DNA from: an uncultured Candidatus Rokubacteria bacterium
Lineage (GTDB): Bacteria > Methylomirabilota > Methylomirabilia > Rokubacteriales > DASRDR01
Reading direction: 5' to 3'
Length of the DNA stretch: 64,000 nucleotides
NCBI GenBank assembly: GCA_963708025.1
Contig: CAVPSB010000016.1
Span: forward strand, 160,001-224,000
The number at the start of each line of letters is the position of its first letter. The stretch's first letter is position 1. Positions 4,160 to 18,439 of this stretch are shown in pieces. The translations under genes and the position numbers were made by a program. A model generated the notes under the pieces. That model ran no database searches. It was not told the DNA's origin and worked only from the letters and a program-made list of their open reading frames with translations.

Positions 4160-5434
4160 TCACCCGTCGGGCCCGAGCATGTCCCGCAGTGCATTCACCA
4201 GCTGGTTGTCGCTCCAGCGCCACAGGCGGTCGGGATGCTCCTCGACGTCGACCCGCTGGTTCCATGACAGGTCGTCCCGGAAGGCGCCGATCGCGTGAGC
4301 CGCGACCGACCAGAGGGCGAGCGCCAGGAAGGTGGCCTGCCATGCCCGGCGGCGCATCACCATGGGGGCGAGTGGAACGAGACACAACGCGAGAATCGGC
4401 GTGAGGTCGGCCAGCAGGCGCGGGCCGTAGGTCCACCCGCCCCACCACTTGGCCCACTTGCCGTACATCAGGACGGTCAGAACGACCCCGACGCTCAGCG
4501 CGCGCAGCAGCGGGTCTCCCCCGCGTCGCCAGGCGGACGCGAAGCCCACCGCCGAGAGGATAAAAACCGGCGAGTACACGAGGAGCCCCCGTCCCGGGCT
4601 CAGCAGGACCCCGGTGAGCCCCTCCCACAGAGGGGTCCGCCACAACGATGGCTCGAAGAGGGGCAGCTGCGTGTGAAGGGGACGGCCGAAGTAGACGGTG
4701 TTGTACCACAGGTGGAAGAGCACGCACGGTACTCCGCCGAGAGCGAACACCCAGGCCTGAGCGAGGTGGTACCGCAGGACGTAGACCAGGAGGGGCACCG
4801 CGAGCACGATGTCGGGCGGCCGGGCGAGCACGGCAAACGACAGCGGAAACCCGGCCACGCCCACCCAGCCGGGCTCCGTCCGCCCCCGCACGAGGCAATA
4901 CAGGGTGGTCGCCAGCGCCAGCTGGCTCGGGCCATGCTGCCAGAGCGCCTGGCTGCTGACGCTCAGACTGCTCGTGCCCAGCCCGTAGACCGCGACGATC
5001 GCGACGGCGACCCGCCGGCTCGTCAGCCTCAGGAGAACGAGATAGAGGGCGACGGCCGACAGCGCCACGATGATGGCGGCCGAGAGCTTCTCCTGCTCCG
5101 CCATGCCGGGACTCTCCGGGCTGATTCCCAGCAAGACCGCCGGCACATAGATCGGCAGCGCCACCAGCGCCACCCCCACCGGGTACCACGACACGTAGTG
5201 CCCTTTGGCCTGGACGATGTAGTACGGCAGGCCCCCGATCCGCCCGCCCGGCGCCCTCTCGTCGAAGAGGAAGGGAAACGCATCGAGATGGAAGGTGCCC
5301 CCCCGGAGGATGCTGAGAGGCAGGTAGCGGGCCGGCAGCGTGTCCCCGGTCGCGATCGTTCTCCCGTTGGCCAGGTAGACTCCCACGAGCACGAAGAAGA
5401 TGACGGCAACCTCCGCCAGGCCCCTGATCTTCAA
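4160..5434 (-). CDS. Polytopic membrane protein, probable GT-C glycosyltransferase
   Basis: Many TM segments; GDTLPA acidic first loop; SSQALWQHGP and WWGGWTYGPR motifs; TTG start overlaps the upstream stop. Confidence 0.65.
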   Translation of the reverse strand: MKIRGLAEVAVIFFVLVGVYLANGRTIATGDTLPARYLPLSILRGGTFHLDAFPFLFDERAPGGRIGGLPYYIVQAKGHYVSWYPVGVALVALPIYVPAVLLGISPESPGMAEQEKLSAAIIVALSAVALYLVLLRLTSRRVAVAIVAVYGLGTSSLSVSSQALWQHGPSQLALATTLYCLVRGRTEPGWVGVAGFPLSFAVLARPPDIVLAVPLLVYVLRYHLAQAWVFALGGVPCVLFHLWYNTVYFGRPLHTQLPLFEPSLWRTPLWEGLTGVLLSPGRGLLVYSPVFILSAVGFASAWRRGGDPLLRALSVGVVLTVLMYGKWAKWWGGWTYGPRLLADLTPILALCLVPLAPMVMRRRAWQATFLALALWSVAAHAIGAFRDDLSWNQRVDVEEHPDRLWRWSDNQLVNALRDMLGPDG

Positions 5435-5817
5435 CGCCGGAACAGGAAGCGGGCGAAGAACGGGCGGTTCCGGGCGACCAGCCGGTAGCCGGCCTCAACC
5501 GCCCAGACGAGCGGCGGGACGCGGAGGACGCGGCCCAGGCGCGGGAAGCCGATCCGCTCGAGGATGAACAGGCTGGCCCGGCCGGCCGCGAGCAGCGTGC
5601 CGTCGGGGCCGAGGACGTGGACGGCGCGCGCGCAGCGCTCGGCCAGGGCGTCGGTCATCGGCGGGCGCGGGGCCTCCTGGTAGGGCACGGCCTCGAAGAC
5701 GTCATCCCGATCCCGTCGCTTGACCCAAGCGACCGACCGCCGTCAGAACCCTCACCCGCCGTCCCAGAAGAGCCAGTAGCGGCCGGGACGCCCCGGCGCG
5801 GGGACCGCCGGGCTCAC
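5431..5817 (-). CDS. DCC-family (DUF393) thiol-disulfide oxidoreductase, probable selenoprotein with a UxxU motif
   Basis: One continuous frame YWLFWDGG*GF*RRSVAWVKRRDRDDVFEAVPYQ...YRLVARNR; TGA at 5752-5754 and 5743-5745 occupy both Cys positions of DxxCxxC; GTG start at 5817 is approximate. Confidence 0.8.
5715..5733 (-). promoter_or_regulatory. Putative bacterial SECIS hairpin
   Basis: GUCGCUUG-GGU-CAAGCGAC, a perfect 8-bp stem starting 9 nt after the second UGA. Confidence 0.65.
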
Positions 5818-6032
5818 GGGAAGACGCGCTTCCCCGCTCTCCTCAGGGCGTGAACCAATACCGGCGACTCCCATTCCCGCCATCCATGCCGGAGGCCCCC
5901 GTCCCCGCCGCCCGGCTCCCACTCCGACCGCCGATCGGCTTCTCGCAACGCTCTGCTCCCCCCAAGCGGCCGTGGCGTTCCGCTTCGAGCCGCGGCCCAA
6001 AGGCCGAAGGCCGTCCAACAGTCGCGGCCTCC

Positions 6033-6075
6033 GAGGGGGGGGGCATCGGGGGGGTCTTGGAAGACCCCCCCGAAA
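6033..6075. repeat. REP-like palindrome, family 2
   Basis: TCGGGGGGGTC-TTGGAA-GACCCCCCCGA preceded by a G-tract. Confidence 0.55.
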
Positions 6076-6080
6076 AGTCC

Positions 6081-6422
6081 TCAGGGCAGGAACTCGTTGG
6101 GCTGCTCGAAGATCCCGAGCCCGATGCACCCCTCGGGCGACCACGCGCTGTGGATCGAGCCCGGCCGGCGCCACACGAAGTTCCCCGCCGTGCAGGCGCC
6201 GTCCTCGTCCACCAGCGAGCCCTCCAGGATGAAGCTCTGCTCGAGGCCGACGTGGCGGTGGCGGGGCAGCCGCGCGCCGGGCTCCATCCGCGTGAGCACG
6301 GTGCGCCGGCCCGAGGCGTCCTGGTAGAGCACCTTGTTCCAGACCCCGGGGAACGGGGTCGGCTCCCAGTCCATCCCGGCGACGTCCACGTAGGTCGAGC
6401 GCTCGGTCTCGTTCAGGATCAT
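6081..6422 (-). CDS. ChrR-like cupin domain protein
   Basis: RMEPGARLPRHRHVGLEQSFILEG...WRRPGSIHSAWS. Confidence 0.85.
   Translation of the reverse strand: MILNETERSTYVDVAGMDWEPTPFPGVWNKVLYQDASGRRTVLTRMEPGARLPRHRHVGLEQSFILEGSLVDEDGACTAGNFVWRRPGSIHSAWSPEGCIGLGIFEQPNEFLP

Positions 6423-15618: not shown

Positions 15619-18439
<2,821 letters not shown>

Follow-up and report, generated by a model that had tools for sequence, protein, structure and literature searches.

The prokaryotic selenoproteome was catalogued in a 2026 review as 119 families and subfamilies, none of them PF04134, DUF393 or DCC, and the motif with two selenocysteines (Sec, U), UxxU, is listed there for the Prx-like family PF00578, the metal-binding family NF041115 and FmdB TIGR02605 (PMC13188914, Table 1). 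Further, 16 UXXU group 4 [NiFe] hydrogenases are known from a 2026 paper, whose accessible part raises but leaves open the question of one Sec insertion sequence (SECIS) serving two UGA codons (PMC13582414). Arabidopsis DCC1 is one characterised member of the DCC family, and reduces a protein substrate according to the available portion of its description (PMC7598583). Here we describe a minus-strand gene at positions 5434-5817 of a 64,000-nucleotide stretch of DNA from an uncultured Candidatus Rokubacteria bacterium (the window: contig CAVPSB010000016.1, positions 160,001 to 224,000). From sequence comparison it is most likely a DCC1-like (DUF393/YuxK) selenoprotein in which both cysteines of the family DxxCxxC motif are replaced by Sec (D-G-G-U-G-F-U).

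With TGA read as U, the minus-strand frame of 5431-5838 gives SGEARLPVSPAVPAPGRPGRYWLFWDGG-U-GF-U-RRSVAWVKRRD...FLFRR-stop, which can also be written as ...GRPGRYWLFWDGG-U-GF-U-RRSVAWVKRRDRDDVFEAVPYQEAPRPPM...FLFRR-stop; with the codons left as letters, the active-site stretch of 5434-5817 is ...YWLFWDGG-TGA-GF-TGA-RRSVAWVKRRD. The original prediction had noted a single frame LFWDGG-TGA-GF-TGA-RRSVAWVKRRD running into a DCC-like open reading frame (ORF) that the ORF track starts only at 5688. The minus-strand translation agrees with this, and the only table-11 ORF in the DCC frame is the 85-residue piece of 5431-5688 with its GTG start. The first bases of the two TGAs lie 9 nt apart. Residues are numbered from GTG 5815-5817, which places the motif at D19-G-G-U22-G-F-U25 in the product and agrees with the short N-termini of the orthologues. 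This start is provisional, with in-frame ATGs upstream near 5873-5884 (read by eye) as alternative starts. The features of the locus are as follows.

5434..5817, minus strand: putative coding sequence of a DCC1-like (PF04134) selenoprotein of 128 residues, from translation, Pfam, alignments, the ratio of nonsynonymous to synonymous substitution rates (dN/dS) and an AlphaFold2 (AF2) model
5752..5754, minus strand: UGA1, the predicted Sec22 codon, in place of the first Cys in the family CxxC (TGA in 60 of 128 loci, TGC/TGT in 68)
5743..5745, minus strand: UGA2, the predicted Sec25 codon, in place of the second Cys in CxxC (TGA in 44 of 128 loci, 43 UxxU and 1 CxxU)
5715..5733, minus strand: SECIS-like hairpin with 8-bp stem and GGU apical loop, over the codons V-A-W-V-K-R
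5431..5433, minus strand: true stop of the DCC gene, TGA, from the frame reading
5431..5688, minus strand: table-11 ORF of 85 residues with GTG start, from the ORF call, holding the C-terminal two thirds without the active site

The read-through product matches the DCC1-like profile PF04134 with an E-value of 8.9e-15 and 56.4 bits (Pfam cut-off 27.8). Residues 23-127 align on profile positions 1-109 of 113, so that the match covers both TGAs, and a genome-wide profile search retrieved the same locus again with two TGAs inside the match. PF04134 is the sole Pfam family matched at E<=0.1, and no NCBIfam family was found for the read-through protein at that threshold. The DCC/DUF393 membership first proposed for the gene therefore holds, the DxxCxxC motif being present with Sec codons for Cys. 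The close relatives in public databases (77-99% identity) are fragments of 85-102 residues, for example from Rokubacteria, named 'hypothetical protein' or 'DUF393 domain-containing protein'. Their first residues are MVAWVKRRD or later, and as they begin just past UGA2 they are without the active site.

The two motif columns were compared over an orthologue set of 130 loci (the window's own, one from genome G006, 48 genome loci and 80 metagenome loci), 128 of which were readable; a spurious 14-residue match (L107) had been dropped beforehand. The genome loci derive from a scan of species-representative genomes that returned 49 loci. The metagenome loci are the best 80 of 202, and their peptide patterns were drawn solely from the region downstream of the motif, to avoid favouring Cys. 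All counts are of loci and not of independent lineages, and both scans were ranked by similarity to the UxxU query. The readable loci fall into four states.

UxxU (TGA/TGA): 43 loci, 33 distinct 60-nt sequences
UxxC (TGA/Cys): 17 loci, 14 distinct 60-nt sequences
CxxU (Cys/TGA): 1 locus, 1 distinct 60-nt sequence
CxxC (Cys/Cys): 67 loci, 60 distinct 60-nt sequences

As anticipated in the original prediction, homologues carry C or U at the motif, and the Cys homologues align at exactly both positions, the CxxC orthologues at 47-70% identity. An orthologue at 59-99% identity was present in seven of 61 related genomes (the window's own counted), six times with two TGAs in the same columns and once with TGA and TGC, and none of the weaker DCC paralogues (<=44% identity) in these genomes has a TGA there. 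An even sample of 201 genomes from the window's phylum gave an orthologue (E<=1e-25) in 10, six with two TGAs, four with one and none without a TGA. Going by record titles, the UxxU forms come from metagenome-assembled genomes (MAGs) of Methylomirabilota/Rokubacteria (Rokuibacteriota) and of Binatia, and the Cys forms from Binatia, Gemmatimonadota, Latescibacterota, Zixibacteria, Holophagaceae and Fimbriimonadales.

The Asp and both C/U columns are invariant across 62 aligned sequences (alignment A4, with U written as C), and in alignment A1 the residues W15, L16, W18, D19, G20, R27, A30, W31 and V32 are invariant; conservation at the protein level is thus seen both before UGA1 and from UGA2 to the annotated start. 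Over codons 19-78 the median dN/dS was 0.30 and the maximum 0.61 (88 usable of 105 pairs); of the 14 relatives compared, the nearest three gave about 0.14. The region downstream of the hairpin is, judged from these ratios, under purifying selection, as expected for the intact gene first proposed. The TGAs themselves were confirmed in contigs from runs of three studies (two DNA libraries and one RNA library) which span both codons and show no alternative letter at 5743-5745 or 5752-5754. A 252-nt contig from the RNA library (run X13) spans 5651-5900, which means presence in an RNA library and not transcription.

Bacterial SECIS elements have been described by a loop of 3-9 nt, a stem of 4-16 bp, a G in the first two loop positions, a distance from UGA to loop of 16-37 nt and a minimum free energy (MFE) of at most -7.5 (PMC13188914). 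The hairpin at 5715-5733 lies within all of these published limits for both UGAs. In the Sec forms it occupies nucleotides 22-40 counted from the U of UGA1, so that the stem begins 18 nt past UGA1 and 9 nt past UGA2, and the GGU loop 26 nt and 17 nt past them, respectively. Folded alone it has an MFE of -10.1 kcal/mol (z -4.94). When RNAalifold was run without a given structure, this hairpin was the only consensus helix in the 60 nt from UGA1. Across 38 distinct Sec-form sequences (ten further distinct Sec forms were found later and are left out of this alignment) 96.7% of the stem cells were paired, against at most 42% for slid-partner controls, and the covariation score was reached by none of 500 shuffles. 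Two stem pairs show compensatory changes from U-A to C-G, in four sequences each, at the cost of Lys-to-Arg at one pair and Val-to-Ala at the other.

The distribution of the hairpin follows the state of the motif. A hairpin with at least 7 of the 8 pairs in register and a loop beginning with G was present in 42 of 43 UxxU, 14 of 17 UxxC and the single CxxU locus, and in only 4 of 67 CxxC loci, which makes 57 of 61 Sec-type against 4 of 67 Cys-type loci. The codons tell the same story: the Sec forms use GTC (14/14), GCT (13/15), AAG (14/14) and CGA (13/14) inside the hairpin, whereas at the same residues the Cys forms spread their Val codons over GTT (17), GTG (6), GTC (4) and GTA (2), use GCC in 24 of 27 cases with no GCT, and have AAA in 19 of 23. 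Cys-type orthologues with the same residues thus carry other synonymous codons and have lost the helix, and the Arg and Asp codons flanking the hairpin vary freely in both groups. Judging from codons, distribution, covariation and the RNAalifold consensus, the hairpin is more than a by-product of protein conservation.

Some individual loci deserve mention here. The lone CxxU form (TGT..TGA) is found on metagenome contig L159, with the first Cys codon near 598; its hairpin is as in the other Sec forms, with a C-G variant of one stem pair, and stands 9 nt past the single UGA. Metagenome contig L124 is of the UxxC type, and within its hairpin the conserved Trp codon is replaced by an extra TAG in frame; a damaged copy or an error in the contig may lie behind this. 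The Cys/Cys locus L162 has a GGU loop and a compensatory pair of its own.

UxxC, CxxU and UxxU forms share one hairpin in a fixed register, and 15 of the 18 loci with a single UGA (17 UxxC and 1 CxxU) have it in that register. Because the same hairpin accompanies all three forms, one SECIS probably serves both codons, and comparison of the forms suggests that either spacing can work on its own and that a second element is not required in UxxU genes. In the mechanism we propose, a SelB.GTP.Sec-tRNASec complex on the GGU loop of the single hairpin would bring Sec to UGA1, which precedes the loop by 26 nt, and another ternary complex, bound to that same hairpin, would do so three codons further on at UGA2, which precedes the loop by 17 nt; the loop would have to be re-occupied by the fresh complex before UGA2 enters the A site. 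In E. coli fdhF the loop lies about 18 nt past the UGA, by which measure UGA2 has the canonical geometry and UGA1 a stretched one. Thioredoxin-fold motifs usually prefer Sec at the attacking, N-terminal position, and the excess of UxxC over CxxU (17:1) agrees with this preference.

The genome of the window (G000; 49 contigs, completeness 99.67%) holds the Sec machinery that the original prediction had presupposed, tRNA-Sec, selA, selB and selD all being present. On contig C32 the tRNA-Sec gene (76.2 bits) adjoins selA (597.8 bits) and selB (371.9 bits). The selD gene (398.4 bits; G000:C7:91381-92304, L019 1501-2424) has one in-frame TGA (SHGAG-U-ACKLG), so that SelD itself would be a selenoprotein in this genome; selC, selA, selB and selD all score over the curated cut-offs. 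C23 holds another selD-like match, one that no stop interrupts. All seven other Sec-form genomes tested have a tRNA-Sec of at least 67 bits. It is also found in two Cys-form Binatia genomes, and in a Cys-form Holophagaceae genome the score was only 47.1 bits.

The AF2 model, built from 62 orthologues, has a mean predicted local distance difference test (pLDDT) of 85.5 and a predicted template modelling score (pTM) of 0.79. It places a strand at 14-18, then Sec22 just ahead of a helix at 23-35 with Sec25 in its first turn, followed by two more strand regions and a helical C-terminal part. In thioredoxin-fold proteins the CxxC classically sits in the loop after strand 1 and the first turn of helix 1, and the model suggests a thioredoxin-like fold for the DCC1-like protein. 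We infer a diselenide redox centre because the model sets the two Sec residues i, i+3 apart around the first turn of the helix. The motif position in the model, the family and the Arabidopsis member together make a diselenol/diselenide oxidoreductase the favoured reading: Sec22 and Sec25 would cycle between diselenol and intramolecular diselenide, with Sec22 as attacking nucleophile and Sec25 as resolving residue in thiol/selenol-disulfide exchange with a substrate. A third cysteine, C62 (window codon 5632-5634, minus strand), within the motif L-A-x-R-C-x-R-A-V-H-V, is nearly invariant in Sec and Cys forms (alignment A4), and may be a further redox residue or a ligand.

Other explanations of the locus must be weighed against this one. 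Gene callers and public databases report solely the C-terminal piece of 85-102 residues, as they would for a pseudogene, an assembly error or a shorter gene from GTG 5688 with a non-coding upstream part. Against this, the upstream part is conserved as protein in the A1 residues named above and contributes strand 1 and the active-site helix to the Pfam domain, 43 loci drawn from many assemblies have both TGAs and the others have Cys codons, and independent contigs carry no variant letters at the TGAs. We give these readings practically no weight; the recurrence of TGA, the contigs, the purifying selection and the upstream conservation rule them out, and two independent Cys-to-stop errors, held unlikely from the start, are equally hard to reconcile with TGA in the same columns of independent assemblies. 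A subtler alternative is that the codons are recoded without both becoming Sec, either by a SECIS-dependent tRNA-ReC (selC*-type) giving Cys or by near-cognate read-through with Trp or Cys, which would make the actual protein CxxC, UxxC or CxxU. As far as the accessible part of the hydrogenase paper goes, tRNA-ReC reads UGA as Cys and is linked to UXXU motifs, tRNA-ReC-like genes occur in about 56% of the UXXU-hydrogenase genomes, and the possibility is raised there (PMC13582414); reloading of SelB on one hairpin within three codons would also, we infer, be kinetically demanding. G000 nevertheless has a single tRNA-Sec-like gene over the Rfam cut-off (RF01852), and ARAGORN calls one tRNA-SeC and one ordinary 76-nt tRNA-Cys in the whole genome; two long odd ARAGORN calls elsewhere in it have no Rfam match at E<=1. 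With RF01852 and ARAGORN no tRNA-ReC-like gene was found in the 49-contig, 99.67% complete assembly, and the three 94-nt ones examined among the weaker secondary RF01852 matches in relatives are tRNA-Ser. A Cys outcome is moreover available through TGC/TGT, which many orthologues use, so that the retention of two TGAs by 43 loci speaks for some other residue, and we find recoding to anything but two Sec quite improbable. Even less probable, in our view, is an arrangement of two signals, with the hairpin serving UGA2 alone at its canonical 17 nt and UGA1 depending on another element or mechanism. The 26 nt of UGA1 exceed the distance in fdhF, and a lower stem lengthens the hairpin in the window, both of which would fit such a division. 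Yet of the 17 UxxC loci, where UGA1 stands alone, 14 have this hairpin with its register unchanged, no further conserved structure lies within 60 nt past UGA1, and 26 nt is inside the published range of 16-37 nt (PMC13188914).

The main functional rival accepts both Sec residues and has UxxU chiefly coordinate a metal or metalloid (Hg, Cu, As, Ni or Fe) instead of acting as a redox couple. A known UxxU family, NF041115, is metal-binding (PMC13188914), UXXU forms part of the Ni-binding motif of group 4 hydrogenases in the accessible part of their description (PMC13582414), and the nearly invariant C62 could supply another ligand. The DCC family is, on the other hand, annotated as thiol-disulfide oxidoreductase, its Arabidopsis member reduces a protein substrate as far as the available portion of that paper tells (PMC7598583), in the model the motif takes the place where a redox CxxC classically lies, and no conserved metal-handling genes adjoin the DCC gene. 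We regard metal binding as the main function as unlikely.

A number of observations weigh against the picture of a double-Sec thioredoxin-like protein served by one hairpin. The whole case for Sec is one of comparative genomics, the genome has an estimated contamination of 8.18%, and none of its sel genes shares a contig with the window. UGA-to-SECIS spacing is reportedly strict in E. coli, so it cannot be taken for granted that one hairpin acts at two spacings that differ by 9 nt. Folded together with its GC-rich surroundings, the hairpin has an ordinary energy (z -0.82 over 55 nt and +0.27 over 71 nt); such energies are uninformative here and were not used as evidence. Four Sec-type loci lack the hairpin as defined above: L133 has 6 of 8 pairs in a shortened stem, L061 and L119 (both UxxC) have a different, shifted hairpin, and L124 has 6 of 8 pairs in addition to its extra TAG. 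Conversely, the Cys/Cys loci L126, L130, L160 and L162 have a hairpin in the SECIS register, so that Sec forms are not alone in carrying it; it may have been left behind by reversion from Sec to Cys, or be a pre-adaptation. The CxxU form is known from the single contig L159. In the tree of 48 rows 26 of 45 inner branches are open and a single origin is neither shown nor excluded, so that for this short protein the number and direction of Cys/Sec switches and the order of events cannot be claimed. The structural neighbours of the model are mostly thioredoxin-fold proteins (N-domains of glutathione S-transferases, glutaredoxins, thioredoxins and NrdH) but weak ones, with a best VIA Z of 6.0, and Foldseek gave no match to the model at E<=0.001; the fold assignment therefore draws mainly on Pfam membership and on the order of secondary-structure elements.

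With these points taken into account, we hold with good confidence that both UGAs of 5434-5817 (minus strand) are decoded as Sec via one hairpin. The two central claims of the original prediction are both supported by comparison, Sec for both Cys through the conserved TGAs, the hairpin and the Sec machinery, and one SECIS for both UGAs through the single fixed-register hairpin of the UxxC, CxxU and UxxU forms. Somewhat less firmly, we think it likely that the DCC1-like proteins are an unrecognised prokaryotic selenoprotein family of soil and sediment metagenomes and of Methylomirabilota- and Binatia-titled MAGs, with one SECIS for two Sec insertions three codons apart, an allelic series CxxC/UxxC/CxxU/UxxU which suggests that one bacterial SECIS can act at no fewer than two distances, 17 and 26 nt, and a diselenide site of very low redox potential.

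The surroundings of the gene gave no hint of a substrate, as no conserved partner genes were found in the 54 orthologous loci and the Binatia neighbourhoods. The next gene on the minus strand (4160-5434) has a TTG start at 5432-5434 that overlaps the DCC stop in the sequence TTGA, which suggests translational coupling; its product is a membrane protein of 424 residues, whose PMT_2 match of 25.8 bits falls short of the cut-off (26.1). Neither this gene nor the phosphodiesterase and cupin neighbours had a tblastn match at 1e-5 in the 54 orthologous loci. The AOR and ThiS-like neighbours recur only in the two closest genomes, and the neighbours of the Binatia orthologues are housekeeping genes (Mut7-C, SpoU, Dtd, Lgt). 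In a scan of 5300-6200 nothing resembled a promoter; two terminator-like sites, which overlap each other, were called at 5401-5418 within the next gene and were not used. A G/C-rich inverted repeat at about 6035-6075 (G runs, TCTTGGAAGA, C runs) lies just downstream of the cupin gene stop, in the spacer of about 260 nt before the DCC gene; it lacks a run of T, and the terminator scan did not report it. The genome has one more DCC1-like match (G000:C12:31356-31571, L027 1513-1782), which covers profile positions 41-112 only, and as it has the C-terminal half alone and an upstream frame without CxxC or UxxU, this copy is a truncated paralogue or remnant. Elsewhere in the window ARAGORN called an 85-nt tRNA at 17363-17447 (minus strand) with a four-base anticodon (ggcg); no Rfam family was found anywhere in the window at gathering score, and this call is therefore probably a false positive of GC-rich sequence.

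Full-text literature searches found no Sec form of DUF393, PF04134 or YuxK, no title on DCC-family selenoproteins stood among the 20 of 80 papers listed for a broader search, and the main text of the BSepDB paper contains neither 'DCC' nor 'PF04134', the survey and database supplements being outside the scope of these statements. The gene would thus add one family to the prokaryotic selenoproteome that is missing from the 119-family catalogue of 2026. The original prediction had singled out UxxU as unusual; its rarity stands, two Sec in one CxxC-type motif being rare among natural proteins, but it is not unique, as UxxU is known in a few bacterial families (PMC13188914; and, for the part accessible, PMC13582414). 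UxxC, CxxU and UxxU on one hairpin amount to a natural experiment on how strict the spacing from SECIS to UGA is and on the reloading of SelB within three codons, and the small, soluble-looking protein is a scaffold on which disulfide, selenylsulfide and diselenide chemistry could be compared. Eukaryotic selenoprotein L also has UxxU in a thioredoxin-fold protein, for which a diselenide is reportedly formed; it uses a eukaryotic SECIS in the 3' untranslated region and belongs to a Prx-like fold family. Homology to the SelL/Prx-like family was not seen, PF04134 being the only match at E<=0.1, so the likeness is one of motif only.

Compared with the PF04134 family, for example Arabidopsis DCC1, the protein has the same domain over its whole length and the same N-terminal D-x-x-[C/U]-x-x-[C/U] motif, and it differs from the Cys members in that both motif cysteines are UGA-encoded and an in-ORF SECIS hairpin is present. 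Like the bacterial SECIS consensus (the bSECISearch model and E. coli fdhF), the hairpin is an in-ORF stem-loop right after the UGA with an 8-bp upper stem, a small loop starting with GG or GU and a UGA-to-loop distance inside 16-37 nt; unlike in the fdhF type, a single hairpin here has one UGA 26 nt and another 17 nt ahead of its loop. The Prx-like family PF00578 is likewise a bacterial thioredoxin-superfamily redox protein with Sec for one or both Cys of CxxC, in which UxxC and UxxU forms coexist (PMC13188914; and the accessible part of PMC2398784), but the two Pfam families are unrelated, and the DCC protein is much smaller and has a helical C-terminal extension. The closest parallel in coding is with the UXXU hydrogenases, which, in the accessible part of their description, also have two UGAs with two codons between, a proposed single downstream SECIS with a G-rich apical loop, a mosaic of Cys and Sec in the tree, and SECIS-like relics in Cys types (PMC13582414). 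There, again as far as that part goes, the motif binds Ni, CXXU is dominant and tRNA-ReC is frequent (PMC13582414), whereas here the protein is small and probably of thioredoxin fold, the usual intermediate is UxxC (17 loci, CxxU 1), and the searches of the window's genome gave no tRNA-ReC-like gene. Set beside these systems, what is probably new is DCC1-like as a selenoprotein family, while its kind is a known one, a probable thioredoxin-fold protein with Sec for Cys and an in-ORF SECIS; its rarer features are the double-Sec motif and an unusually clean natural allelic series.

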